A stretch of 64,000 nt of DNA from Nitrospirota bacterium (GTDB taxonomy: Bacteria > Nitrospirota > Thermodesulfovibrionia > Thermodesulfovibrionales > SM23-35), in the NCBI GenBank assembly GCA_963796125.1, contig CAWCKM010000047.1, forward strand, positions 66,299 to 130,298, given 5' to 3'. The position numbers and the translations under genes are program-made. The notes beneath the pieces are model-generated. The model worked only from the letters and a program-made list of their open reading frames with translations. It searched no databases and was not told the origin of the DNA. Positions within the stretch are counted from its first letter, which is position 1. Each line of letters starts with the position of its first letter. Positions 2,894 through 60,335 of this stretch are shown here, piece after piece.

Positions 2894-4176
2894 CGAGAAT
2901 AGAATCGGCGAAAAGAGGAATCATTACAGAAGAGGTAAGGGCTGTTGCCCTCTCTGAGAATATATCACCCGAAAGGCTTGCTTCTGATATTGCAGAGGGA
3001 GTAACGGTAATCCCTATGAACGGCAGGCGCAGTATAAAGCCAATAGGCATAGGGAAAGGGCTGAAGACAAAGGTAAACGCGAATATAGGGACTTCGAAAG
3101 ACAGGGTTTCGCTTGATGAAGAAAAGGAGAAGCTTGATGTTCTTATTCAATACGGCGCTGACGCTGTTATGGACCTCTCAACAGGCGGGCCGATAAAAGA
3201 ACTGAGGCGATTACTCTTAGACAGAGCTACTGTTTCAGTCGGGACAGTTCCTGTCTATGAGGCTGCCATCAAGGGTGTAGAGACTCATGGCACAATAGCA
3301 AAGATGACCTCTGATGACCTCTTTGATGTTATAGAAGATCACGCAGAGGAAGGAGTCGACTTTGTTACTGTTCACTGTGGTCTGACGAGGAGAGCTGTTG
3401 AAAGATTACAGGGAGAAGGGAGAATCCTTGACATTGTAAGCCGCGGTGGCTCGTTTCTTCTCGAATGGATGATTTACAATGACAGAGAAAACCCTCTTTA
3501 TGAACATTTTGACAGGCTCCTTGAGATTGCAAAAAGATATGATCTGACCCTGAGTCTCGGGGACGGGCTTCGTCCTGGCTGTCTTGAGGACGCAACTGAC
3601 AGGAGCCAGCTCGAAGAACTCCTCACCATCGGAGAATTGAGAGACAAGGCTTTGGCTGAAGGGGTGCAGGTAATCATTGAAGGACCGGGTCATGTGCCTA
3701 TAAACCAGGTCGAGTTGAATATAAAGATCCAGAAAGAGATCTGCAAAGGGGCGCCTTTTTATGTTCTGGGTCCCCTCGTAACAGATATAGCAATGGGATA
3801 TGATCATATTGCAGCAGCTATCGGTGGTGCTATTGCAGGTGCTGCAGGCGCTGATTTCCTCTGTTATGTTACACCAGCGGAACATATCAGACTTCCCAAT
3901 ATCGAGGATGTGAAGGAAGGCCTCATTGCTTCCAGGATTGCCGCCCATGCAGCAGATATCGCAAAGGGTGTACCGGGTGCTATAGAGCTTGACAGGAAGA
4001 TGGCACATTACAGAAAGACCCTTGACTGGAATGGTCAGATTTCCCTGAGCCTTGATCCTGAAAAGGTGCGCAAGTGGCGTGCAGAGGTCCCTCCTTCGGA
4101 GAGTGAAGTCTGTTCGATGTGCGGGGAGTTCTGTGCGATACGAATTGTTGAGAAGGCGCTGAAGAAAAGGAATTGA
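2890..4176 (+). CDS. thiC: Phosphomethylpyrimidine synthase ThiC
   Basis: 428 aa with conserved ThiC blocks (TVHCGLT, GDGLRPG, EGPGHVP) and the C-terminal CSMCGEFCA cluster motif. Confidence 0.95.
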   Translation: MTRIESAKRGIITEEVRAVALSENISPERLASDIAEGVTVIPMNGRRSIKPIGIGKGLKTKVNANIGTSKDRVSLDEEKEKLDVLIQYGADAVMDLSTGGPIKELRRLLLDRATVSVGTVPVYEAAIKGVETHGTIAKMTSDDLFDVIEDHAEEGVDFVTVHCGLTRRAVERLQGEGRILDIVSRGGSFLLEWMIYNDRENPLYEHFDRLLEIAKRYDLTLSLGDGLRPGCLEDATDRSQLEELLTIGELRDKALAEGVQVIIEGPGHVPINQVELNIKIQKEICKGAPFYVLGPLVTDIAMGYDHIAAAIGGAIAGAAGADFLCYVTPAEHIRLPNIEDVKEGLIASRIAAHAADIAKGVPGAIELDRKMAHYRKTLDWNGQISLSLDPEKVRKWRAEVPPSESEVCSMCGEFCAIRIVEKALKKRN

Positions 4177-4934
4177 AAACAGCCTTACCAATAGCCGGTT
4201 CTGATCCAACAGGAGGTGCAGGGCTTCAGGCAGACCTGAAGGTCTTCAGGGCTTTCGGGGTACACGGCCTCTCTGTTGTATCTGCTATTACAGCACAGAA
4301 TACAGTAGCTGTCGAGTCTGTCCTTCCTGTCGAGAAAGATTTTTTCGGACAACAGCTCCATACCCTTTTATCTGATATCAGACCTGATGCAATGAAAGTA
4401 GGAATGCTCTACAGTGAATGGGCTGTTGATCTTATTGCAGAGGTAATAAAAGAATATTCGCTGCACAACCTCGTCATCGATCCTGTCACCGTTTCTTCAT
4501 CCGGTAAAGCCCTTGTTGCAGACGGAACCTTAGATGCAATAAAAGAAAAACTTTTTCCTCTCGCAAAGATAATTACTCCAAATATCTATGAGGCATCTGT
4601 TCTTACAGGTCTCAGGATCGAAGAGAGGAAGGATATGGAAGAAGCTGCTAAAATTCTGAAGGATATGGGCACTGAAGTTGTGGTAATAACCGGGGGGCAC
4701 CTTGAAGCAATTGCGCTTGATGTATATTATGACGGAGAGTTTCATGATGTTGAAAGTGAAAAGGTGGAGGGTGAATATCATGGCACAGGATGTGCGTTTT
4801 CTGCTGCCATTACAGCATCAATTGCCCTTGGCCACATTCCCCTCGAATCCGTAAGAGAGGCAAAGGAGTTTATCAGTAGGGCGATACGAAAGGCTTATCA
4901 CCCTGGAAAAGGGATGGGACTGCTTTATTTGTAG
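4173..4934 (+). CDS. thiD: Hydroxymethylpyrimidine/phosphomethylpyrimidine kinase ThiD
   Basis: IAGSDPTGGAGLQADLKVF, DPV, and GTGCAFSAAI near the C-terminus. Confidence 0.9.
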   Translation: MKTALPIAGSDPTGGAGLQADLKVFRAFGVHGLSVVSAITAQNTVAVESVLPVEKDFFGQQLHTLLSDIRPDAMKVGMLYSEWAVDLIAEVIKEYSLHNLVIDPVTVSSSGKALVADGTLDAIKEKLFPLAKIITPNIYEASVLTGLRIEERKDMEEAAKILKDMGTEVVVITGGHLEAIALDVYYDGEFHDVESEKVEGEYHGTGCAFSAAITASIALGHIPLESVREAKEFISRAIRKAYHPGKGMGLLYL

Positions 4935-4954
4935 AGGAGTAAATTCAAAAAGCG

Positions 4955-5620
4955 TTGAAAATAATCTTATGTGAAAATGGCCGGAGCATCTTGCTTCGGC
5001 TCAGCCTTTTCATTTTATTTCTTTTACTTGCAATCAGTTGTGATAAACCCCAGGTGACGAGTGAGGAGTCTGGTGAGATTGATGTTTCACAGGAACCCGT
5101 GCAGGTTCAATATGATTCAGACGAACCTATCATTATCAAAATAAACGATAAAAGTGAGTTTATCATCACTCCCATGGCAGAGTACAAGATTTCCGCTATT
5201 CTGGTAAACAGGAAGTCCTATCATGATGGATGGCGTTCGGAGGTTGCGCCTGTTGATATTGCGCTTGCCTGGGGGAGACTGGCAGAACCGGACTATGATA
5301 AATATATCTCTTACAGTCAGCGTGACAGGTGGTATTTTTATGAAAATGAAGCAGGAAGTCCGTTCAACAGTTCCTTTGTCATAAGCCATTCTGCAAATAA
5401 CCATATCATTCCAGCCGATGAAAATATTCTCAGGGCAATTAAGACAATTAAAAAGAAGGAAAAGATTCTCCTCGAAGGTTTTCTTGTGAATGTAAAAGGA
5501 CGCCATAAAGGAGACGCTTTCTGGTGGAACAGCAGCTTGAAACGCACCGACACCGGCGACGGTTCATGCGAGGTTTTTTATGTCAAGAGAGTCAGGATCG
5601 GTACAAAGGTTTATGAATAA
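4955..5620 (+). CDS. Hypothetical lipoprotein
   Basis: Signal peptide with a lipobox (LLLAISC). No family recognised. Confidence 0.5.
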   Translation: MKIILCENGRSILLRLSLFILFLLLAISCDKPQVTSEESGEIDVSQEPVQVQYDSDEPIIIKINDKSEFIITPMAEYKISAILVNRKSYHDGWRSEVAPVDIALAWGRLAEPDYDKYISYSQRDRWYFYENEAGSPFNSSFVISHSANNHIIPADENILRAIKTIKKKEKILLEGFLVNVKGRHKGDAFWWNSSLKRTDTGDGSCEVFYVKRVRIGTKVYE

Positions 5621-7011
5621 GGCATTTCCAAAAGCAAGGGATCTCTGCGTTCTCCTAAGGAATTAAGATAGTCCCTGGCTTCATCAAGTGCTCTCCTTAC
5701 GGCCTTCTTCCCGTATAGTCCGATTGCAACATGGAAGAAATCAAGATGGGTGAGGTGCTTGAAAATATATTTCCATGAATAAAATCGTCCCATTGCCTTG
5801 AGACTTTCGATATGAAGAGTCTGTGGGCTCATGAGAGAAGGTTCAAAGACGATATGATGGCCGTCATATTTGCTCCAGTCAATGTGGAGAAGCCTGCCTG
5901 ATTCTTTCATTTCATTAAAGAACGGTGTGCCCGGCAAAGGAGTAAGCATCAGAAATTGTATTGTATCAATGCCATGGGTTATGGCAAAGTCCGTTGTTTT
6001 TTTGAGGGTTTCTACCGTATCAGTGTCAGCGCCAAATACAAACATCCCATGAATTTCTATTCCATGGTCTCTGACCGTTCTGATACAGTGTATGATCTCC
6101 TCAAGGTTCTGTTTCTTGTTATATGCCTCGAGAGTTTTCGGGTTCACTGATTCAAAACCGATGTGAACGGTATCACAGCCTGCATCTGCCATAAGGCGTA
6201 ACAGTTCTTCGTCCTTAGCCACGTCTGTCCTCACCTGAGCAGACCACTTAAAACTAATGCGCTCAGCGATCATCGCACGGAGCAACTCCTTTGTCCGCTC
6301 CTTGTTTGCGGTAAAATTGTCGTCAACAAAAAACTTGTTGCCCTTTGAGAAAGAGTGGATGTGTTTTAATTCCTTCATCAGGATTTCAACAGACTTAAAC
6401 CGGTATTTTCTTCCAAACATCTGGATCACAGAGCAGAACTTGCAGTTAAAGGGGCATCCTCTTGATGTAGAAATGGGATAGATATTAGAGGGTTTCCACT
6501 GCTGAACGAGATGAAAATCAGGCAAAGGAAGTATATCAAGGTCTTCGATGAGAGGCCTCGGTGGATTATTGATAAGACCGCTGCCATTATTTCTGTAACT
6601 GAGGCCCTTTATTGAGGTAATGCCAGGAGTCCCTTTCTCAAGATAACCAACGAGTTCGGGCAGTGTCACATCTCCCTCTCCACGAACTACATAATCAGCA
6701 TGTTTCATTGCTTCTTCCGGAAGGAAGGAAGGATGAGCGCCTCCCATAACAACGGGAATCCCTTTTTTCCTGCATCTGTCTGCAATTCTATAGGCCCTCC
6801 TGGAAGTAGAGGTAATGGTAGAGATGCAGACGATATCAGAGTTTTCAATATAGGACCAGTCAGGGGCAGCAATATCTTCGATGAATGCCTTTACTTCGTG
6901 GCCGCGTTCTTTCAACATAGTAGAAAGCAGGACTGCGCCAAGCCTCGGAATCGGAAACTTGCTAAAAATATTGGCAGCGGGTGATTTTGCTTCGATAAAC
7001 GAGATTCTCAT
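5611..7011 (-). CDS. B12-binding-domain radical SAM protein
   Basis: N-terminal cobalamin-binding-like domain plus the CPFNCKFCS (CxxxCxxC) radical SAM motif; 466 aa. Confidence 0.8.
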   Translation of the reverse strand: MRISFIEAKSPAANIFSKFPIPRLGAVLLSTMLKERGHEVKAFIEDIAAPDWSYIENSDIVCISTITSTSRRAYRIADRCRKKGIPVVMGGAHPSFLPEEAMKHADYVVRGEGDVTLPELVGYLEKGTPGITSIKGLSYRNNGSGLINNPPRPLIEDLDILPLPDFHLVQQWKPSNIYPISTSRGCPFNCKFCSVIQMFGRKYRFKSVEILMKELKHIHSFSKGNKFFVDDNFTANKERTKELLRAMIAERISFKWSAQVRTDVAKDEELLRLMADAGCDTVHIGFESVNPKTLEAYNKKQNLEEIIHCIRTVRDHGIEIHGMFVFGADTDTVETLKKTTDFAITHGIDTIQFLMLTPLPGTPFFNEMKESGRLLHIDWSKYDGHHIVFEPSLMSPQTLHIESLKAMGRFYSWKYIFKHLTHLDFFHVAIGLYGKKAVRRALDEARDYLNSLGERRDPLLLEMPYS

Positions 7012-7232
7012 GCTTCTCCTTGATTAATAAAGGTTATTAAAAGATGTATCCTTTTTGGTGAGGAAGGAATAAAACTCCATGTCTAACAACTATAACATAA
7101 AAATGCATGTTTTAGGAGATAATTATTACATCTTTCATTGATTTGACTTCTGCCATTTCGTTCAGGTATGTTCACTATGGATTTTTCAACTCGCTGAAAA
7201 ATCTTATATTTATAAAGGAAAAATAACAACGT

Positions 7233-8705
7233 ATGCAAACCTATCCTGAATTTATTCCTGTAACTATAGACAAGAGCCATATTATCACCATAGGCGAGAG
7301 GATGTATGCCGAAAGCATCGAGTTTGTGAGAGAACTGGTGAATAATTCCTATGACGCTGATGCAAGTCTGGTTGAGGTTATTGTTGAAGAAGATACCATT
7401 GAAATAAGGGACAATGGAGCCGGTATGGACATTGAAGGGCTTAAACAATATTTCAATATCGGCTCACAACAGAAGCTTTATTCTCCAAAGTCTCCGATAT
7501 ACAACAGGGACAGGATCGGACAATTCGGCATAGGAAAGTTTGCAACCCTTTCTGCATGCAAGCGTTTTGAAGTCATTACAAGGAAAGATGGTTTTGTCGG
7601 AAGGGTTATCTTTGATAAGGAGCAATGGGAAAAGGCAGGGGATATATGGCAACTTCCTCTTGAGATACTCGCTGCAGATTTCAGAAAACAGAATGGCACA
7701 ACCGTCATATTGACAGGATTAGACAGAAGGTTTGATCCGAAAGACATAGAGGCAAAAATAATTGAAGGTACACCTATTAAGGCTCCCCATTTCAGAGTAA
7801 AAATAAATAATCATACTGTTACCCCGCGAAGCCTCACAGGTCACAGACTTCCATTTCTTGAAGGAACGTCCTTTGGCCCTGTAGCAGGAGAGATAATAAT
7901 CCTTTCTGAGACTGCTTCCATCGCCTCAGATCTCGGAATTGAAGTAAAGGTAAAACAAGTAACTATAAGAAGGGAGCTCTTCGGTATGGAAACATGGGGG
8001 AAGGCGATGGCAAGGGTCAGGGGTGAAGTGAATGCTGACTTCCTTCCTATAACGAGCGACAGGACTGGTTTTATAAGGGATTCCGATGAATATCGGGAAT
8101 TCCTCAAGGTTATGGAAAAGGTAATGGAGGGCGTAAAGGTATCTCTTCAGAAATTGACTATGAAGAAAGAAAGCAAAAAAGTCAGTCGTGCACTGAAAGA
8201 GGCACTTCAGAGGATATACAAGGCACTGGCAGTAAATCCTGATTTGTCACCTTTTGGTGCGATTCCCATTGGAGATGAGACAAGAGGCATAGGCAGTGCT
8301 GCTGAAATCTCTCAGAAAAAAGAAGAGGTCAGGGAATCAGAGGTCAAAGGAGAAGAAAAACCAAAAGCACCTGAGAAAAAGAGGAAAAAGAAACCAAAGG
8401 TAAAAAGGCTAACTCCTAATGCCATTATCAAAAAGATAAAATTTGGTGAAACAGGCGTCTCATGTGTTGTAGACAGCTTTGGAGAAGACGGTCCTGAGGT
8501 CTTCTCTGAAGAGACAACCATTTATTTAAACCGTGACCATCCCCTTTATAAAAGAGAATCTGCAAAGGTTGATACCCATGTACTAAACCTTGCAAGGCTT
8601 ATTACTCAGGAAATTTCCCTCATGAAAGACCCCCGAAATCCAAGACAGGCATTTGAGAGACAGAGCAAGCTTCTCAGGGATGCGTTTATTGAGAGAAGTG
8701 GTTGA
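7233..8705 (+). CDS. GHKL/HSP90-like ATPase domain protein (MORC-like) with a Lys-rich linker
   Basis: Bergerat-fold boxes are present: ELVNNSYDADA (N box), IRDNGAGM (G1), GQFGIGKFA (G2). There is a C-terminal KKEEVRESEVKGEEKPKAPEKKRKKKPKVK tract. Confidence 0.75.
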   Translation: MQTYPEFIPVTIDKSHIITIGERMYAESIEFVRELVNNSYDADASLVEVIVEEDTIEIRDNGAGMDIEGLKQYFNIGSQQKLYSPKSPIYNRDRIGQFGIGKFATLSACKRFEVITRKDGFVGRVIFDKEQWEKAGDIWQLPLEILAADFRKQNGTTVILTGLDRRFDPKDIEAKIIEGTPIKAPHFRVKINNHTVTPRSLTGHRLPFLEGTSFGPVAGEIIILSETASIASDLGIEVKVKQVTIRRELFGMETWGKAMARVRGEVNADFLPITSDRTGFIRDSDEYREFLKVMEKVMEGVKVSLQKLTMKKESKKVSRALKEALQRIYKALAVNPDLSPFGAIPIGDETRGIGSAAEISQKKEEVRESEVKGEEKPKAPEKKRKKKPKVKRLTPNAIIKKIKFGETGVSCVVDSFGEDGPEVFSEETTIYLNRDHPLYKRESAKVDTHVLNLARLITQEISLMKDPRNPRQAFERQSKLLRDAFIERSG

Positions 8706-8776
8706 TATTTTTTACCATAGAAGAAGCGAGAAGTGTCGTATTTCAGTCTTTTATTTGTACCACTTCTTCTACTGCG

Positions 8777-9091
8777 TTAAATTTCATCATCTCTTTTTCT
8801 TAAAGTCTCAATGGTGTACGAGAAATTACGCTTTCCGTGAATCAATGCAAGGATTGCAATTTTGTCTGGCAATATTTCGTAAATCAAACGATAAGAATAG
8901 ATGAATATTTCTCGTATGGTAAGTTCGCCAATCTCGGGAACGATTCTTCCAATCTCAGGAAAGGTAGTTAATTTTTCGGATTTTTCAACTATTTCAAGTG
9001 ATATTTTCTTCGCATAGAATTTGGAATCCCTTGCAATATAGTCATGGATCTGCTTTAAATCATGTTTCGCAGGCGTTGTCCACTTTACCAC
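8777..9091 (-). CDS. parE: ParE/RelE-family type II toxin
   Basis: 104 aa; A.HDL..I..YI...S..YA......I...LTTFPEIGR...E......REI.IYSYRLIYEI is a ParE-like pattern. GTG start. Confidence 0.85.
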   Translation of the reverse strand: MVKWTTPAKHDLKQIHDYIARDSKFYAKKISLEIVEKSEKLTTFPEIGRIVPEIGELTIREIFIYSYRLIYEILPDKIAILALIHGKRNFSYTIETLRKRDDEI

Positions 9092-9264
9092 GTCTGCATT
9101 TCTCTTTTTAAGTCTTCAAGAGAAATTGTGTCGTCGCGTTCTGCTGCATCCCTGCCTTTTTTAACTTTGTCAATCACATAAAGTTCATACATTATATCAT
9201 CAATATTTGCGGTATCAGGTAATTTTGCAATTACCTTGAGAGCTTCTTGTTTCAAGGTTTCCAT
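9085..9264 (-). CDS. Small antitoxin partner of ParE (59 aa, below the ORF-track cutoff)
   Basis: My own translation: METLKQEALKVIAKLPDTANIDDIMYELYVIDKVKKGRDAAERDDTISLEDLKREMQTW. Its stop overlaps the parE start (GTGGTAA). Confidence 0.6.
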   Translation of the reverse strand: METLKQEALKVIAKLPDTANIDDIMYELYVIDKVKKGRDAAERDDTISLEDLKREMQTW

Positions 9265-9318
9265 TCTTGCCCCTCCTTCATTTTCAAAACACCTTGAATT
9301 ATTTTATCATGTTATGGG

Positions 9319-9576
9319 TTAATCATCCATGCCACGAATACGAATTCTGGTTTCCTCCACTGGTAGCGGATGTTTTAGTTTTAAACCTACAAGAATCCAA
9401 TCTTCAAGTGTTGAACGCAGCGCATATTCACACTCGCGCAAAGTTTTTTCAAATGCAACAACACCAGAACATGAAGGAATCCGTCCAGCAAATGTGCCGT
9501 CTTCCAGCTTGTCATAGAGGGCTTGAGCCATCGCCCGCTCTATATACTCGCTAAGGATATGTCGTACTGTAGGCAT
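9319..9576 (-). CDS. HicB-like antitoxin-family protein (no adjacent HicA)
   Basis: 85 aa; ...DGTFAGRIPSCSGVVAFEKTLRECEYALRSTLEDWILVGLKLKHPLP resembles the HicB-like antitoxin fold. No toxin ORF lies beside it. Confidence 0.5.
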   Translation of the reverse strand: MPTVRHILSEYIERAMAQALYDKLEDGTFAGRIPSCSGVVAFEKTLRECEYALRSTLEDWILVGLKLKHPLPVEETRIRIRGMDD

Positions 9577-9653
9577 TGCATACCTCCATTTTGTGGAACT
9601 TTAACAAATTATATCAAAATTACTACGGAGTTCATAAGTAATGTCTCATGATT

Positions 9654-9677
9654 GTCATTCCCGCTTGTCGGGAATCC
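9654..9677 (-). repeat. Half copy of the GTCAT...GAATCC hairpin element
   Basis: gtcattCCCGcttgtCGGGaatcc; same arm as in 73-132 and 41170-41250. Confidence 0.6.
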
Positions 9678-9794
9678 GTCTTACGTCCAGAACAAAAAGG
9701 GAAATTTTCATCTGCTTAGGCTTTCTTTGTTAATCTTAAGCCCTCTGTTAACTGCCGTTGCAGACAGTTTAATAGAACCGTCCCAATACTTTCC

Positions 9795-9866
9795 AGAAAC
9801 CCAAGGCAGGCTTTTGAGCGACAGAGCAAACTTCTCAGGGATGCGTTTGTTGAGAGAAGCGGATAA
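9795..9866 (+). pseudogene. Displaced duplicate of the last 23 codons plus stop of the GHKL ATPase gene
   Basis: Encodes RNPRQAFERQSKLLRDAFVERSG*, against RNPRQAFERQSKLLRDAFIERSG* at 8634-8705. There are 10/72 nt differences: 8 synonymous, 1 Ile/Val, 1 TGA/TAA. There is no homology upstream. Confidence 0.75.
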
Positions 9867-10142
9867 TTAAGCAATGCTAATCTGCAACCGTTTTCCAAGT
9901 GCAGCCGCAACACGCTCTAATGTTGAGAGTTTAATGTCCTCTGAATGGTTTTCAATTCTCGAAATTGCTGTTTTCTTGGTTTTCAGCTTTCGCGCAAGTT
10001 CTTCCTGAGTTAACCCGGCAGATTCACGTGCCTGACGAAGCATTACACCAACTTTGAACTGTTCGTAGCCCTCATCATAGCCTTCAGCAAATTTTTTATC
10101 TCTCTTTTTTCTTTCGCTTATATATTTTTTCAGGTCACTCAT
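9867..10142 (-). CDS. higA: XRE-family HTH antitoxin (HigA-like)
   Basis: [31 protein letters not shown] is an HTH motif. The gene overlaps the upstream toxin gene by 8 nt. Confidence 0.8.
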
Positions 10143-10530
10143 GTTTTATCCTCCTTTTCAAAAAGTCTCTCCTGTAAGACTCTGCCTTTTCTATTTCAGA
10201 TTTTGGCGTTTTTTGGCTTTTCTTAACAATTCCATGTGTTAGCACAACAACCGAATCATCTACAAAGAAGCAAAATATGCGATACGCATTTGAACCGAAC
10301 TGAATTCTACACTCCCATATTTCTTCTGCTCCGTGAAGCTTCTTGAAATATGAGGATGGTACTATCTCCAAATCTTCTAATAAACTGAGCACCCATGTTG
10401 CCTTTTGTGCAACCTTTGAGGGTAAGGAATCAAGAAATTCCTGTGCAGGGCATTTACCATCAGCAGTTTTATAAAAGGTAATAACCCTGGTCACAGACAC
10501 TATGTTAACCTGCATGTTAACATTTGTCAA
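10135..10530 (-). CDS. higB: RelE/ParE-superfamily toxin (Gp49/HigB-like)
   Basis: ...[24 protein letters not shown]...L..L........YFKKL.G...[18 protein letters not shown]....VVVLTHG..KKSQKTP. The true start may be the internal Met at ~10515. Confidence 0.8.
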
Positions 10531-10749
10531 CTGATACTAAACGGTGAGGGCTGTATAACGTACGGGAAATTCTCCTATGTCAGCCTTTGGGTAGTCCTCT
10601 ATTAGCTGCCGGTCGCGGTATTTTAAGAAAACCGTTGTCCCGATTTCTACCTTTAAGGGGGATTATTTTTGAAGCTTTGTAGAAGATATGAAAGTAAAAA
10701 GGGCTGAGAGAGCAACCCTCAGCCTCCATCTTCAATGCTAAAAATCAAG

Positions 10750-11200
10750 GTTGTATCGTAAAGATCGTCACTGACATCTTTTACCAGCACGGTTCTTCAG
10801 GATCTTCCAATACTACTTTTATCTTGGCATCGCTTTTTGTCTTCAACTCTTATGTACTTGCCAAGGATACCATCCGAAATTGCCCGTACTAATAGCCATT
10901 AACTTCCAGGTACTTCCTCCATCAGAAGAGTTGATAAGTAATTTATCTTTCACAGTTTTTATCATAGATCTGTATCCCACCTCGCAAACCATTCTTGCCC
11001 TGATTCAAGGGTCTCCCCTCCATTGGTGAAGTTATAACTACTTTTGCTCCTTTTCCAGTTAATGGAACATTCGTCTGTCGGAGTGTCAGGGTCATTAGAT
11101 GGGATACTGAGAGTTGCACTCTTTAAGCCTGCTGCAGTAGGTGAGAATTTCACGTTAACTGTGCAGCTTGAACACATAGAAATTGGGACGGTTCTATTAT
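10750..11200 (-). pseudogene. Fragment of a repeat-domain surface protein
   Basis: SCTVNVKFSPTAAGLKSATLSIPSNDPDTPT and ...NSSDGGSTWKLMAISTGNFGWYPW domain pieces are interrupted by stops. No N- or C-terminus is present. Confidence 0.55.
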
Positions 11201-11343
11201 TGTCAATTAATTCGTGTTTTATAAAATGTTATTTGTCCGAAGTTTTCAATGAACAACAACATATTCTGCAAAAGATGTAGACTCAGGAATCGGCAAATTA
11301 TCCTCCAACAAACCCCGTACATGCCCTGACTGCTTCACCAACA

Positions 11344-11577
11344 TCAACAACTTTCAGCAAAATCAAAAACAGGAATTTCCAGTTTCTTAACAGGCTTAAA
11401 TTTGTCTTTTGCGAACTTCAATAACTCGTCAGTAACATCAGGAGAATAAGTTTTCTCTCCACACCGTTCGCAGACCTCGGCAGGCACATGTTCAACAAGA
11501 AAATACTTGCCTTCCTCTTCATAACTGAAGGTCGCCAACATTTTCTTCGTTTCACCGCCGCAAAAAACGCATCTCAT
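11344..11577 (-). CDS. YgiT/MqsA-type zinc-finger antitoxin-like protein
   Basis: MRCVFCGG...HVPAEVCERCGEKTYSP has paired CxxC motifs; 77 aa. Confidence 0.7.
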   Translation of the reverse strand: MRCVFCGGETKKMLATFSYEEEGKYFLVEHVPAEVCERCGEKTYSPDVTDELLKFAKDKFKPVKKLEIPVFDFAESC

Positions 11578-11708
11578 TCCTTTTTCCTCCTAACTCTGTA
11601 ATCTATCCATTCGGTCTTATCCGGATCATAAGCTGTAATAATAACAACTGTCGGCGGAAGTGAAAGCTGCACATGAAGATGTCTACCAGCTTTAGATAAG
11701 GGTTTCAA
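11574..11708 (-). pseudogene. N-terminally truncated DUF4258-like toxin remnant
   Basis: My own translation: ...LHVQLSLPPTVVIITAYDPDKTEWIDYRVRRKKE*. The stop overlaps the downstream ATG (ATGA). Only ~44 codons remain and a stop lies immediately upstream. Confidence 0.5.
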
Positions 11709-11796
11709 TGGTTAAATTATTGATTAAAGCCCCTATGTTGTCAAGGAATTTTCTGAGTCGGGTGTAAACATTCAGTGGCGCGTGAGTATATCATAA

Positions 11797-11841
11797 CCCC
11801 ACCTAACCTCCCCTTATCTTTAAGGGGAGGAATAAGCCCTC
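11797..11841. repeat. GC-rich hairpin element (cctcccctta-tct-ttaaggggagg + aataagccctctc)
   Basis: Palindrome read from the sequence. It shares the aataagccctctc tail with 39322-39392. Confidence 0.6.
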
Positions 11842-12071
11842 TCATCGCTGGAGGATTACAGTCTAGGTCGAGACATCATTGAAGCCGATGCAGCGATTCC
11901 GCTATAATTATGAAGTCATCTTTAATGAACTCGAAAGTTGATTCCGCGGTTTCTGTAGGCGGATGATCAAAGCAATCTAAAGACGAGATTCTCGCTGCGC
12001 TCAGAATGACAAGCGCAGTAAAGCTATGTATGAGACAGCACACTAATTTGTTCTGTTATAATGATTGAATC

Positions 12072-13433
12072 ATGTCCAAAGTAAAGACTTTTTATCAGTG
12101 TCAGTCCTGTGGCTACGCGAGTCCTAAGTGGCTTGGCAAGTGTCCTGACTGTGGAGAATGGAACACCCTTGTTGAAGAAAGGAAGGAAACGGTTCCCTCT
12201 CGACTTTCTCTCCCTGCTCAGTTCCGAAAGCCCGAACCACAGCTTTTAAGTTCAATCAAGGCTGGATATGAACAGAGGACGTCAACAGGAATAAAGGAAC
12301 TCGACAGGGTTCTCGGTGGGGGTGTTGTGACAGGCTCGGTAATCCTCGTTGGTGGCGACCCCGGCATCGGGAAATCCACAATGCTCTTACAGGCCATTGC
12401 AGGACTTTCAAGATATGGTCAGGTACTGTATGTTTCGGGTGAGGAATCACCTGAACAGATAAAGATCAGGGCTGAAAGACTGTCGGTAAATTCTGATGAC
12501 ATTATCCTCCTTTCAGAGACTTCGCTCAGGAGTATCCTTGATGCAGCAATGAAACTTGCCCCAAAAGCGATAGTCATAGATTCCATACAGACTGTTTACA
12601 CAGAGGAGATTCTCTCCGCCCCCGGTTCTGTGAGTCAGGTGAGGGAATGTGCTGCAAAACTGATGCTCTTTGCAAAAAAATCAGATATCCCGGTCTTTCT
12701 TGTCGGCCATGTAACCAAAGAAGGAGCAATTGCCGGTCCCCGGGTGCTTGAGCACATCGTAGACACGGTTCTTTATTTTGAAGGTGACAGGGGACATGCA
12801 TACCGGATTCTGAGAACAGTGAAAAACCGTTTCGGATCAACGAATGAAATTGGTGTCTTCGAAATGTCTGATTCAGGACTCAGGGAGATAGAAAACCCGT
12901 CAGAGCTTTTCCTCCTGGAAAGGCCTCTGAATGTATCAGGCTCGACCGTTGTTGCAGCCCTTGAAGGTACAAGACCCCTTATGGTTGAAATCCAGTCTCT
13001 TGTCTCTCAGACAAATTTTGGGATGCCCCGGAGGACGACAATAGGAGTTGACTTCAACCGGGTGAACCTCCTTGTGGCAGTTCTCGAAAAGAGGGTTGGT
13101 CTTCATCTTGGCGGAATGGATATATTCGTCAACGTTGTCGGAGGACTCAGAATCATTGAGCCGGCAGTTGACCTCGGAATTATTTCAACCATTGCTTCAT
13201 CTCTCAGGGATATCCCTATCGATCCAAAAACTTTTGTCTTTGGTGAAATCGGTCTCTCAGGTGAGATACGGGCAATTGCACAGGCAGAGATACGGATAAA
13301 GGAAGCATCAAAGATTGGTTTTAAGAAAGCCGTGATGCCTCTGGGAAATGCTGATAAAATTAAAGGTAGTTTCGGTTTGGAGATAATAGGAGTCAAAGAT
13401 GTTGAGAGCGCTCTCGAGGCTGTTCTTACTTAG
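12072..13433 (+). CDS. radA: DNA repair protein RadA/Sms
   Basis: N-terminal zinc ribbon CQSCGY..CPDCGEWNT, Walker A GDPGIGKST, KNRFG motif, and a Lon-like C-terminal domain. Confidence 0.95.
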   Translation: MSKVKTFYQCQSCGYASPKWLGKCPDCGEWNTLVEERKETVPSRLSLPAQFRKPEPQLLSSIKAGYEQRTSTGIKELDRVLGGGVVTGSVILVGGDPGIGKSTMLLQAIAGLSRYGQVLYVSGEESPEQIKIRAERLSVNSDDIILLSETSLRSILDAAMKLAPKAIVIDSIQTVYTEEILSAPGSVSQVRECAAKLMLFAKKSDIPVFLVGHVTKEGAIAGPRVLEHIVDTVLYFEGDRGHAYRILRTVKNRFGSTNEIGVFEMSDSGLREIENPSELFLLERPLNVSGSTVVAALEGTRPLMVEIQSLVSQTNFGMPRRTTIGVDFNRVNLLVAVLEKRVGLHLGGMDIFVNVVGGLRIIEPAVDLGIISTIASSLRDIPIDPKTFVFGEIGLSGEIRAIAQAEIRIKEASKIGFKKAVMPLGNADKIKGSFGLEIIGVKDVESALEAVLT

Positions 13434-20418: not shown

Positions 20419-20509
20419 ATGAGATGCTCAAAATCTCCTCATTTATTCCTCTGAACCCTCTGGAAGATGAACTATAAATAGTAGCCCCGAAAGCTTTCGA
20501 GGTTCTTAA

Positions 20510-31322: not shown

Positions 31323-31380
31323 ATATGCTATTAATCTCTCAAGTTCTTAAAAATTATTTGAGATCTTTGGTTGTATTCTT

Positions 31381-31448
31381 GTCATGCCGGCTTGTCCGGC
31401 ATCCTTCTTTGAAGAAAGATTCCCGAGGCGACGACAAGCGGGAATGAC
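31381..31448 (+). repeat. Two-hairpin GTCAT...ATGAC element, copy B
   Basis: Near-identical to 73-132 apart from a 7-nt insert (ggcgacg). The flanking ~25 nt up to an ATG are also conserved. Confidence 0.8.
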
Positions 31449-33400
31449 AGACAACCAGTGGAACAGAGTTCGCTATGAAATTATTTTCATTATTTTACTA
31501 TTCACTATTCACTATTCACTATTTACTAATTATTGTTTTGCACAAGGAGAAACAACCATAACTTCCGAGACCCTTGAATACATAGAAAGTACATCCACAT
31601 ATATCGCAAAAGGTTCTGTGAAGATTACGAGCGGAGGGAGAGTCATTGAAGCAGATGAGATGATCTACAATGAACAGACAACCGGTATCAGTGCGTCAGG
31701 CAACGTACGGTATGATGACGCCCAGGTGGTAATCACGTCAAGTAAGCTGGAGTTGAATATGGAAACAGATACAGGCAAAGTTTATGATGCAGTGATCTTA
31801 TTCAAAAAAGACAGTTATCATATCTCCGGGAAATCGATCGAAAAGAGGGGTGAGAAGTATTACTATGCCCCTGAGGCAACATTCTCTACCTGTGATGATC
31901 CTGTTCCTGCATGGTCTTTCAAAGGTAAAGATGTAGATCTCCAGGTCGATGAGAGGTTAAAGGCAAAACATGTATCTTTTTACATCAAGGATGTTCCAGC
32001 GCTCTATACCCCTTATTTCTTTCTTCCTTTCCATACCGACAGAGAAACAGGTTTTTTGATTCCGGTTGTAGATTACAGTACTTCAAGGGGATTGCACCTG
32101 AACATTCCTTTTTACTGGGTCATATCAGAAAACAGGGATGCAACTGCGGTACTGGATGTCTATTCAGAGAGGGGAATCGGGGAGGGTCTGGAATACAGAT
32201 ATATAGAACCGGAAGGCATCAAAGGAAACTGGTGGCTTTACCATATAAGGGACACGGAACTTAATAAGGATTTCTTTGAAATGAGGGCATTGCATGAACA
32301 GAGGTCACAAGAAAGACTGGGAGGGTTTCTGAGCATCAACTTTGTCAACGAAAAAGATTTCTACAGAGAGTTCAGTCCCTACCTTGAGGTAAGCACACTC
32401 CGATTTCTTGAGTCTACAGGAGAGATCTCTCTCCCTCTCAGGAACTCCCGTGCTTATCTTCTAACTCAGTACTGGGTAGACCTGGAAGAGGAGCTAAGAC
32501 CTCCATTGCAGAGATTACCGGAAGCAGGATATGTCCTTTATCCTACAAAGGTCGGTCCTTTCTGGTTTTCCGGCACATCAACAGTCTCCAATTTCTGGAG
32601 GGATGAAGACATGTTTGGGCAGAGGCTTGATATCTACCCGGGGATGTTATCCAAGGTCGGTAATGAGTTTGTCCTTACCCAGTCACTTGGTTTTCGGGAA
32701 ACAGCCTATGCCCTGCACAGGACAGAGGAGGACTCATTACATAGAGAGGCAATTGAATATAACATTGGAGTCCATACAAGTCTTTTGAAAAGATATAGTT
32801 CCTTTACACATGTTATAGAACCATCAATCGGATATACCTTCATCACTGACTTCAGAAGATCCTCCTCTTTTCGATTCAACAGAACTTTTTAAAAAGACAT
32901 CGACAGTAGGAGCCTCCCTCGTTAACCGGTTCTTTTATAAAGGTGGAGAAGTCGCTATTTTCAGGGCTACACAGTCCTTTGATGCAGAGTTAGGTGACAG
33001 GCCGTTTCTGCCGTTCAGACTCGAGGTCGGGATTAAGAAGCCTGTCTCTCTGCGCCTTGATACAGCTTATGATGTACATGAAGGGAAGCTTGACAGCATA
33101 AATTCTGACTTGTCTTTCAATATCCCTAGAGGAACACTGTTTGTTGGGCAGAGATATAACAGGCTGGAGGATGTAGTCTATTACAGGGCAGGATTTGACC
33201 TTTACCCGTCTAAACCCTGGTATGTAAGAGGAGTGATATGGTACGACGACGATATGAAAGAAATCCGGGACATTTCTATAGATCTGAGATATTCGAGCCA
33301 GTGCTGGGGTGTGAATGTAGAATTTATTAAGAGACCCCATGACTTTACCTTCGCAGTAATGTTTGATCTCAAGGGTATTTCGAAAGGCTTCAAGATATAA
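31444..33400 (+). pseudogene. lptD: LPS-assembly protein LptD (OstA family), frame break near 32854; start uncertain
   Basis: OstA-like N-terminal domain and beta-barrel body. The C-terminal ~180 aa (EDPPLFDSTELF...RYSSQCWGVNVEF...) continue in the +1 frame to 33400. The in-frame ATG at 31444 lies inside the repeat. Confidence 0.85.
31493..31527 (+). repeat. Heptanucleotide array (attcact x3 plus variants) inside the lptD signal-peptide region
   Basis: attttact attcact attcact attcact atttact. Confidence 0.85.
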
Positions 33401-58230: not shown

Positions 58231-58325
58231 AGGGTTCGATAGAGATCAGAGTGTCATAGTCTATGAATCTTTGAGAGGTTGACTCTTTGTCGCTTAGTAT
58301 TAATCCTGGCTCCCTTGATCCCTCT
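58231..58325 (+). repeat. ~100-nt intergenic repeat, copy 1
   Basis: agggttcgatagag...gtgtcatagtctatgaatctttgaga.ttgactctttg.cgct.tagtatt.aatcct...cccttga is shared with 60222-60335. Confidence 0.75.
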
Positions 58326-60221: not shown

Positions 60222-60335
60222 AGGGTTCGATAGAGTCATCAGATTGTCAGAGTTTCAAGTGTCATAGTCTATGAATCTTTGAGACTTTGACTCTTTGGCG
60301 CTTTAGTATTGAATCCTTGACCCCTTGAATCCTAC
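60222..60335 (+). repeat. ~100-nt intergenic repeat, copy 2
   Basis: See 58231-58325. This copy has a ~20-nt internal insert and overlaps the last codons of the nifS ORF. Confidence 0.75.

Follow-up and report, generated by a model that had tools for sequence, protein, structure and literature searches.

Background

The polymorphic toxin loci of bacteria, i.e. the rhs, contact-dependent inhibition (CDI) and type VI secretion system (T6SS) effector-immunity loci, are among the closest described parallels to the locus analyzed here, which lies in a 64,000-nt stretch of the Nitrospirota contig CAWCKM010000047.1 (positions 66,299 to 130,298; hereafter "the window", with position 1 as its first letter). 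In the window, the 3' end of a conserved gene encoding a GHKL-type ATPase is present twice, on the two sides of a 1.16-kb insert made of toxin-antitoxin (TA) modules, and we propose, giving this explanation about an even chance of being right, that the old end of the gene was displaced by a new one when two chromosomal haplotypes recombined. For the rhs, CDI and T6SS loci, displacement of C-termini and modules has been proposed to proceed via homology-facilitated illegitimate recombination (Kirchberger et al. 2017, PMC5361080), and the same proposal is attributed to Jackson et al. 2009, as cited in PMC5361080. Read as a displacement, the window would resemble these loci in that a conserved upstream gene serves as the anchor, the incoming DNA brings a new gene end together with modules, the old end and its protective neighbour are pushed downstream as orphans, and relatives carry simpler, undisplaced arrays. 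It differs from them in that one conserved peptide is encoded by the old end and the new end alike, without any exchange of toxin domains, and in that the gene is a GHKL ATPase gene, the cargo consists of TA modules, and a complete higBA pair rather than an immunity gene has been retained.

A second kind of parallel is provided by elements that integrate at the 3' end of a gene, protein-coding or tRNA, and replace that end with one of their own, e.g. e14 and phage 21 in the icd gene of E. coli. The window shares with them a direct repeat of the gene end that brackets the insert, mostly silent differences between the copies, an intact gene, and empty sites in relatives. Unlike these elements, its insert has no integrase in it or beside it, the new end is followed by an ordinary chromosomal flank, the content and borders of the insert differ between the window and another contig with two copies (L162; related loci are cited below by their L numbers), and the joint is located at a microhomology.

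Integron arrays, including clusters of attC sites lacking an integron integrase (CALIN), also consist of small modules that often encode TA pairs. Their attC sites are imperfect hairpins of 57-141 nt with the layout R''/L''...L'/R' and a G/TTRRRY core. The window and its relatives are similar in having an AAC...G/TTCTAT-like core, a candidate crossover site, at module borders and a module order that is shuffled between strains, and a sister genome (L081) carries an integron integrase beside its array. They are dissimilar in that the recurrent ~95-nt element at module borders lacks the attC hairpin and has its R''/R'-like halves 4-10 nt apart, in that the window has no intI, and in that the array of L081 is placed on the 3' side of intI, with a GC-rich palindrome that looks more like attC on the other side. 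A site of the dif (Xer) type measures 28 bp, a 6-bp spacer separating its XerC arm from its XerD arm. In the dif modules of Acinetobacter plasmids, small modules, often TA modules including higBA, are situated between short quasi-palindromic sites (PMC6449649, PMC13141974). These sites alternate in orientation and the modules are shuffled between replicons, and the window may be comparable, with two inverted core sites around the second copy of the gene end and higBA; on the other hand, the island in the window is chromosomal and belongs to a different phylum, and its core has no evident similarity to the XerC/XerD arms (no Xer consensus or chromosomal dif site was compared).

Two copies of one gene end

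An earlier note on the window, made by reading its letters alone, had claimed that the last 23 codons and the stop codon of the ATPase gene recur downstream with mostly synonymous differences, that the similarity stops abruptly upstream of the second copy, and that this copy ends exactly against the stop codon of the convergent higA gene. Alignment and codon counting bear out all of this. Positions 8634-8705 and 9795-9866 differ at 10 of 72 nt, and the ungapped direct repeat extends to 75 nt (8632-8706 and 9793-9867, 87% identity; copy 1 and copy 2, respectively), with 18 nt as the longest run identical in both copies. Either copy encodes the peptide RNPRQAFERQSKLLRDAF(I/V)ERSG followed by a stop codon; eight of the nine differences in sense codons are synonymous and one exchanges Ile and Val (P ~3e-5 for at least eight of nine, if the changes are placed at random), while the tenth lies in the stop codon (TGA versus TAA). 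The tail peptide NPRQAFERQSKLLRDAF is kept throughout the ATPase family, even at 52% overall identity, which together with the excess of synonymous changes argues that the two ends diverged under selection as functional gene ends. The synonymous divergence shows that they evolved as working gene ends in different lineages. Upstream of 9793 nothing similar to the ATPase gene was found, neither in the DNA nor in any translated frame, and on the other side copy 2 closes with a TAA (9864-9866) immediately next to the higA stop codon (9867-9869).

The two copies also have different relatives. Copy 1 is nearest to the gene ends of L169 (70 of 72 positions identical), L081 and L082 (69/72 each) and L001 (67/72), whereas the best score of copy 2 with any gene is at most 66/72. 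A chimeric assembly is an unlikely origin of the arrangement, because the two sides of the joint upstream of copy 2 share at most 4 nt and because an independent metagenome contig, L162, carries both copies as well.

Empty sites and the ancestry of copy 2

The first genome scan covered 80 loci from species-representative genomes (Nitrospirota/Thermodesulfovibrionales and Desulfobacterota), and the second scan was carried out over metagenomes. The only syntenic locus among the 80, L001 (rSAM-ATPase ... radA), was dismissed both as an empty site and as an equivalent of the window, since a gene for a 297-aa SPOR-domain-like protein replaces the TA island there. HigA proteins with 98-99% identity (P0002, P0003, P0009) led to contigs with the empty site that the earlier note had predicted, i.e. 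with the ATPase gene abutting higA: L161, L163-L168, L170-L175 and L180, from JGI, NCBI, ENA and Logan samples, at least 13 of them independent. These contigs have the gene order thiC-thiD-(orf)-rSAM-ATPase/higA-higB ... radA, with a full-length ATPase gene (489 aa) convergent with higA and 3 nt between the two. The arrangement is the one expected if the intervening 1,161 bp were removed from the window, so that the stop codon of copy 2 again terminated the ATPase gene, as had been suggested from the window alone.

The window from 9793 to ~10560, i.e. copy 2, higA and higB, is ~95% identical to the empty-site contigs, and in the coordinates of these contigs its alignment overlaps that of the ATPase body, with which it is therefore continuous. 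The genes at the empty sites end with ...AGC TGA TAA followed by TTAAGCAATGC; copy 2, both in the window and in L162, reads ...AGC GGA TAA followed by TTAAGCAATGC. Since copy 2 and higBA are continuous with the ATPase body in these genomes, copy 2 corresponds to the ancestral end of that haplotype; it is evidently the end of an "E-type" ATPase gene (the type found at the empty sites), still joined to its original neighbour. Exact-protein look-ups of the ATPase, HigA, ParE and HicB of the window, and of P0001, a 100% identical HigA, returned no record.

L162 is the second contig with both tail copies. Its insert begins like the island of L081, with another hicB-like gene, so that the left half is unlike that of the window; the relic is 83 nt long, compared with 74 nt in the window, ~45 nt of other sequence lie between the element and the relic, and the junction is different. 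The middle 44 nt of its two copies are identical and contain variants found only in the L162 genome, which points to gene conversion between the copies. Could copy 2 instead be all that deletions have left of a second ATPase paralogue, once complete? The longer relic of L162 (by 9-11 nt) indicates that the present borders are not necessarily the original ones, as such decay would have it. However, the similarity upstream of copy 2 that the earlier note had named as a possible refutation is absent, two full copies of the gene were seen in none of ~185 loci, the continuity of the relic with higA matches that of the single-copy E-type gene in every respect, and it is improbable that in a gene of 1.47 kb two deletions would independently have stopped no more than 9 nt apart. 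We therefore regard decay of a paralogue as very improbable.

Composition of the insert

Judged from the distribution of its parts among relatives (Table 1), the 1.16-kb insert is a mosaic and not one element, composed of a native-type 3' flank, a parDE module, hicB, half of a REP-like hairpin repeat and the ~95-nt junction element. The flank is of particular importance for the interpretation. Its first ~21 nt after the stop codon of copy 1 (TGGTTTTGTCATAGAAGAA in L082) also follow the ATPase gene in L001, which has no TA genes, and positions 8706-8760 are common to the window and L082; in L171 the similarity to the window's parDE begins only at 8763. If the insert had come in by a simple att-type integration, the flank would be part of the element. 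The occurrence of the ~21 nt in the TA-less L001 and of 8706-8760 in L082 argues that the new end is the ordinary end of another chromosomal haplotype rather than element DNA.

At 93.5% identity, the parDE module (8763-9314) is found in L171 and L180 too, located distal to higBA, and in L171 it is bracketed by direct repeats of AACCGTTG followed by TTCTAT. It occupies other positions of the island in L171, L180 and L176-L179. The nearest relatives of ParE were considered as candidates for a second ATPase-parE junction and rejected, as all are at other positions of the island. L082 has the same left part as the window, with most of parE deleted. The 59-aa open reading frame (ORF) that overlaps the start of parE has no match in Pfam or NCBIfam; an ORF of 59 aa was called just upstream of parE also in L171, L177, L179 and L180, and similarity to the sequence of the window was checked for L082 (97%, tblastn). 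The HicB of the window is 72% identical (amino acids) to that of a hicB-hicA cassette in L079. The hicB gene is present also in L081, L082, L162 and L163, and together with its upstream region (9360-9796) it recurs in other arrangements in L081, L162 and L163. In L082 a sequence which by eye resembles the C-terminal part of an IS30-family transposase (3633-3837) is inserted just upstream of hicB (window equivalent 9622) and hides the DNA beyond it. The REP-like half-hairpin is missing from the equivalent position of L162.

The earlier note had read the insert as parE, its antitoxin, a hicB-like gene and half of a hairpin element. Pfam supports ParE and HicB, as it does HigA and HigB, and the half-hairpin indeed corresponds to one half of a repeat; the identity of the antitoxin rests on its position. 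The pairs display features of type II TA systems, with ParE overlapping the 59-aa ORF and HigB (Gp49) overlapping the helix-turn-helix protein HigA, while HicB (UPF0150) is encoded without HicA. An Rfam search of 8500-12100 gave no match at E <= 1.

The higBA pair of the window has a counterpart elsewhere: in L181-L186 it is found between the aspartate kinase gene and sufBD, at 83% nucleotide identity, with the similarity covering exactly 9866-10530. Thus higBA itself is apparently a mobile module, and one of these copies lies beside a gene for an rve-family transposase. Travel of copy 2 together with mobile higBA was ruled out, because the similarity in L181-L186 starts exactly at the stop codon of higA and leaves out the ATPase tail.

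A tblastn search with an integron integrase found no tyrosine recombinase in the 64-kb window, in agreement with the earlier claim that no recombinase is present there, and the ORFs of the insert are accounted for by ParE, the 59-aa ORF and HicB (Pfam). The earlier interpretation as an integrating element that brings its own replacement end holds in part: the old and the new end do come from related lineages, but the insert does not behave as a discrete element, as copy 1 is followed by a native flank, the insert is composite, the borders differ in L162 and no recombinase was found. An insert with the same borders was not met in other genomes; L162 differs in the left half, the length of the relic and the junction, and the parDE and hicB modules occur separately.

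Table 1. Features of the ATPase-radA region of the window
Feature	Positions	Strand	Remarks
GHKL-type ATPase gene, 490 aa	7233-8705	+	Pfam HATPase_c_3, 9.9e-20; conserved gene bordering the variable TA island
Copy 1	8632-8706	+	3' end in use by the ATPase gene; "type 1", ...AGT GGT TGA
3' flank of type-1 gene end	8706-8762		native to that gene end, not mobile-element DNA
parE toxin gene	8777-9091	-	Pfam ParE_toxin, 2e-18; within parDE module 8763-9314
59-aa putative antitoxin ORF	9085-9264	-	overlaps parE start; named an antitoxin by position
Orphan hicB-like antitoxin gene	9319-9576	-	Pfam UPF0150, 3e-27; no hicA
Half copy of REP-like double-hairpin repeat	9650-9680		hairpin 9657-9675; full copies at 68-163 and 31376-31479
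Junction element A, ~95 nt	9702-9796	+	right border of the insert; core TAATAGAACCGTCCCAAT (9770-9787); ends at CCAG, where copy 2 starts
Copy 2	9793-9867	+	untranslated relic of a "type 2" ATPase end, continuous with higA
higA antitoxin gene	9867-10142	-	Pfam HTH_3, 5.7e-13; proteins P0001-P0003 98-100% identical
higB (Gp49-type) toxin gene	10135-10530	-	Pfam Gp49, 1.6e-20
Junction element B, diverged copy upstream of higB	10567-10650	+	nhmmer E = 8e-7; core AACCGTTGTCCCGATTTCTAC
Inverted copy of element core	11173-11199	-	perfect 18-nt inverted repeat with 9770-9787
radA	12072-13433	+	conserved gene bordering the variable island opposite the ATPase gene; tblastn/blastn synteny with L001, L161, L164, L171, L180

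Recombination at the ATPase gene and a proposed displacement of its end

The ATPase gene, whose orthologues in 160 loci are 52-96% identical, is itself a mosaic. Among the metagenomic loci, the ATPase proteins of L081, L082 and L083 are 96%, 93% and 91% identical to that of the window. In sliding windows the gene is 93-98% identical to that of L081 in its 5' half and 84-88% identical in 7686-7985, a tract in which L082, L161 and L167 reach 97-99%; other tracts are nearest to L162 or L166. Overall, the identity of individual tracts ranges from 84 to 100%, each to different relatives, i.e. the gene is a fine-scale recombination mosaic. The adjoining rSAM gene is 97-100% identical to that of L081 in sliding windows and ~98-99% in its DNA overall. 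Homologous exchange is evidently frequent within the ATPase gene, which probably acts as the homology anchor proposed here. The patterns of single-nucleotide polymorphisms were discarded as a means of placing a crossover inside the 72 nt, as they are uninformative in a mosaic population with gene conversion between the copies of the kind seen in L162. One full-length ATPase homologue was present in each locus examined, in varied contexts, in Nitrospirota and Desulfobacterota; the NCBIfam matches of the gene product (7233-8705) are confined to its N-terminus and stay below threshold (BbrUII/HgiDII restriction enzymes, MutL, MzaB and HSP90).

At the other side of the insert, the window is homologous to L081 through ...TTTCCAG (9796), after which L081 runs into the flank of its integrase, unrelated DNA, and the window continues with AAACCCAAGG..., the ATPase tail. 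The sequence across the joint is AACCGTCCCAATACTTTCCAGAAACCCAAGG in the window, and the relic allele of L162 reads GACCCCAGAAA / GACCCCAGAAAT in the same region. Both partners of the joint share CCAG (9793-9796), a microhomology of 4 nt situated 13 nt beyond the core of the junction element, which looks like a microhomology join and not like a crossover at the core site. The two flanks of the insert are thus of different ancestry, with the left one related to L081, L082 and L001 and the right one to the empty-site contigs.

The space between the ATPase gene and radA is a hypervariable island of small TA modules, present as several haplotypes in this Thermodesulfovibrionia population. In one common haplotype, the E type, the ATPase gene ends 3 nt from the convergent higA; in others (O type) it ends slightly differently, with ...SG and TGA, followed by its own short flank and by other TA modules such as parDE and hicB that close in the ~95-nt junction element. 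From these observations we infer the following order of events, donor side, enzymatic route and selective argument. On this reading the window is a hybrid: a left part of O-type origin (ATPase 3' end, flank, parDE, hicB and element) is followed, across a single non-homologous joint at CCAG (9793-9796), by an E-type ATPase gene from its position -74 onwards. If the two haplotypes recombined via the ATPase anchor and one illegitimate joint formed 74 nt short of the earlier stop codon, the last 74 nt of the E-type gene would have been stranded together with higBA, while the working gene would have kept a complete end. The likeliest route seems to be a one-sided homologous recombination, with the ATPase/rSAM region as the anchor and an illegitimate end-join at the other side, i.e. 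homology-facilitated illegitimate recombination. Selection probably favoured the outcome, as the loss of an addictive TA pair or of the ATPase gene would be costly; since higA abuts the ATPase gene with no spacer and both are costly to lose, new DNA could presumably enter only if the gene end became present twice.

If this explanation is correct, the locus would be a well-documented natural case from uncultivated bacteria, with empty and occupied sites and a portion of the donor-type haplotype all visible. It would illustrate how a TA island can grow beside a conserved gene with no harm to the gene or to the addictive TA pair next to it, and it would carry the displacement logic of polymorphic-toxin loci over to an ordinary conserved gene with TA cargo.

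Several observations nevertheless weigh against a displacement through a chance end-join. Among the haplotypes recovered, none continues past the element in a way that would prove the joint at CCAG, L082 being cut there by the apparent IS30-family insertion. The borders of the 74-nt relic in the window and of the 83-nt relic in L162 are no more than 9 nt apart, which is unexpected for random illegitimate joints unless the two share ancestry. Several independent joints to unrelated DNA are found at the core of the element or within a few nt of it: the L081a copy leads into the interior of hicB, and the copies of L162, L163 and L083 into other sequences. In L162 the inverted core site is joined to the interior of radA after 675 nt (window equivalents 12746/11177). 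Such clustering suggests that the element end may be a preferred, perhaps enzyme-cut, breakpoint and not a random one. L081 encodes a 519-aa integron integrase (4644-6203, minus strand; TIGR02249, 383 bits against a cut-off of 265), the stop codon of which is ~50 nt away from a copy of the element and the 3' end of which faces the TA modules. Finally, these organisms are not known to undergo natural transformation.

The modules distal to higBA in other contigs bring up a tandem duplication, in which an unequal exchange between sister chromosomes joined an element distal to higBA to position -74 of the ATPase gene, the first copy lost higBA, and a later replacement of the ATPase allele made the two ends diverge. 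The E-type loci L163 and L166 do carry hicB or parD and the element distal to higBA, in the right orientation, so that a duplication from the tail to the element would yield the joint between element and tail; the radA joint of L162 (12746/11177) is of the same type, and the identical middle 44 nt of the two copies in L162 attest to exchange between such copies. But the scenario requires extra steps, namely deletion of the first higBA in spite of its addictive nature, import of the type-1 end with its flank, and loss of the distal copy, and positions 10651-11172 of the window lack similarity to the corresponding parts of E-type islands. We consider a tandem duplication quite improbable.

The radA joint itself belongs to a region of L162 (~6368-7698 on the reverse complement) in which a cut radA is joined to the outer end of the inverted core site and to an MqsA-like module; the contig ends before any intact radA. 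It has the appearance of a second relic of a gene, here at the opposite border of the island.

The junction element

Copies of the ~95-nt element were detected with nhmmer twice each in L081, L083, L162 and L163 and once each in L166 and L171, in addition to 10567-10650 of the window. They are always located upstream of a minus-strand TA operon, and the operons are of five different kinds. The best-conserved part of the element is ...TTTAATAGAACCG, which is followed by either TTGTTCTATTA or TCCCRATTTCTAT. The form with TTGTTCTATTA gives the palindrome TAATAGAACCGTTGTTCTATTA in L171, L166 and L162, and in L171 two half-sites abut as a 22-nt palindrome. The intact quasi-palindromic core in the same three loci is TAATAGAAC-CGTT-GTTCTATTA. 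The sequence AACCGTTG followed directly by TTCTAY is found at module borders in L171 (twice), L166, L162 and L161 and at 10630 of the window.

In the window, the core has an 8-6-8 layout, TAATAGAA-CCGTTG-TTCTATTA, and is present in inverted orientation at 9770-9787 and 11182-11199; the two form a perfect 18-nt inverted repeat (two matches, compared with 0.02 expected). This repeat encloses copy 2, the higBA pair, junction element B and a further ~520 nt that are non-coding or belong to a pseudogene. At 10962-11177 (minus strand) there is a 71-aa ORF with no match in Pfam, which by eye resembles a fragment of a surface-protein domain (...SATLSIPSNDPDTP...) and is probably the remnant of a pseudogene.

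The element folds into an attC-like hairpin no better than shuffled sequences do (z ~0), RNAalifold gives no pairs for it, and our own scan of the island for AAC...GTT (R''...R') hairpins found none; on these grounds the reading of the element as an attC site was dropped. Upstream of the integrase gene of L081 there is a GC-rich imperfect palindrome of ~130 nt (6330-6480), which may be a true attC or attI region. The same integrase has an N-terminal extension of ~200 aa.

Could the insert then have arrived as a circle? According to this explanation, a circular DNA with the gene end, its flank, parDE, hicB and the element was excised from an O-type chromosome by recombination of the element end with a secondary site at -74 in the ATPase gene and integrated into an E-type chromosome, through either a site-specific event at that site or a Campbell-type crossover inside the 72 nt of homology, with a tyrosine recombinase such as the L081 integron integrase acting in trans. 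It accounts for the direct repeats that flank the insert, the existence of empty sites, a right border formed by a conserved element with a quasi-palindromic core, the direct repeats of AACCGTTG/TTCTAT around parDE in L171, as expected of cassettes, the joints to unrelated sequences that cluster at the element end, the integrase gene adjoining a copy of the element in L081, and the second two-copy genome, L162. The DNA right after copy 1, however, is common to the insert-less L001 and fits only if the circle came from such a chromosome. The joint of the window lies outside the core, at a microhomology, the hairpins expected of attC are lacking both in the element and in the island, the window has no recombinase, and the borders and content of L162 differ. 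A longest identical run of 18 nt is also short for RecA-mediated recombination, and the relics of L079 and L005, described below, are at other positions of the gene. Overall, we find a circular intermediate rather unlikely, and retain the displacement by recombination of haplotypes as the preferred explanation.

Or perhaps the element, with its core TAATAGAAC-CGTT-GTTCTATTA and a longer form ...CCGTCCCRATTTCTAT, is the site of a hairpin-less, integron-like cassette system in Thermodesulfovibrionia, possibly served by the long integron-type integrase of L081? In such a system the outer end of the element would recombine with secondary sites within the essential genes at the borders of the array as well. 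We think this unlikely. If it were true, recombination at the outer end would yield relics of gene ends at the ATPase gene (window and L162) and at radA (L162), and it would show how fragments of chromosomal genes are captured beside cassettes. 

The junction element is conserved and stands at module borders; it may be a new kind of recombination site, and if so, it would bear on the way in which genes are recruited into cassette arrays and shuffled there.

Relics at other ends of the gene

Duplicated parts of the same ATPase gene accompany TA modules in two further loci. In L079, a metagenome-assembled genome of Nitrospinae, the first 39 codons of the gene (118 nt) are duplicated at 3385-3502 and 4082-4199 with 95% identity, and all six differences are synonymous. 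The duplicated gene starts bracket the hicB-hicA cassette; the upstream copy stops right after codon 39, and the working ATPase gene starts 9 nt after the stop codon of hicA. In L005, which belongs to the same contig as L085, a perfect repeat of 20 nt (3861-3880 and 10001-10020) is identical to nt 1-20 of the ATPase gene; the stop codon of the ADH-like gene upstream lies within this repeat as well. It brackets a 6.1-kb TA/NACHT island with MNT/HEPN, VapBC and PIN genes and a gene for an 891-aa NACHT/SUMF1-like protein. Neither the length of the relic (20, 74-83 or 118 nt) nor the end of the gene concerned is constant, which speaks against a single attachment site and in favour of a general process by which both neighbours are preserved.

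Other repeats in the window

Two further sets of repeats were observed in the window outside the island. A family of ~35-nt repeats ending in a C5...G5 hairpin (CCCCCTTTTCCAAAGGGGG) is represented at 20506, 38816, 45666, 46467 and 47248; three of the copies, at 45.6-47.3 kb, are spaced ~800 nt apart and could delimit another repeat-bounded array. A direct repeat of 55 nt (58241-58295 and 60249-60303) is 87% identical, its copies being 2,008 nt apart.

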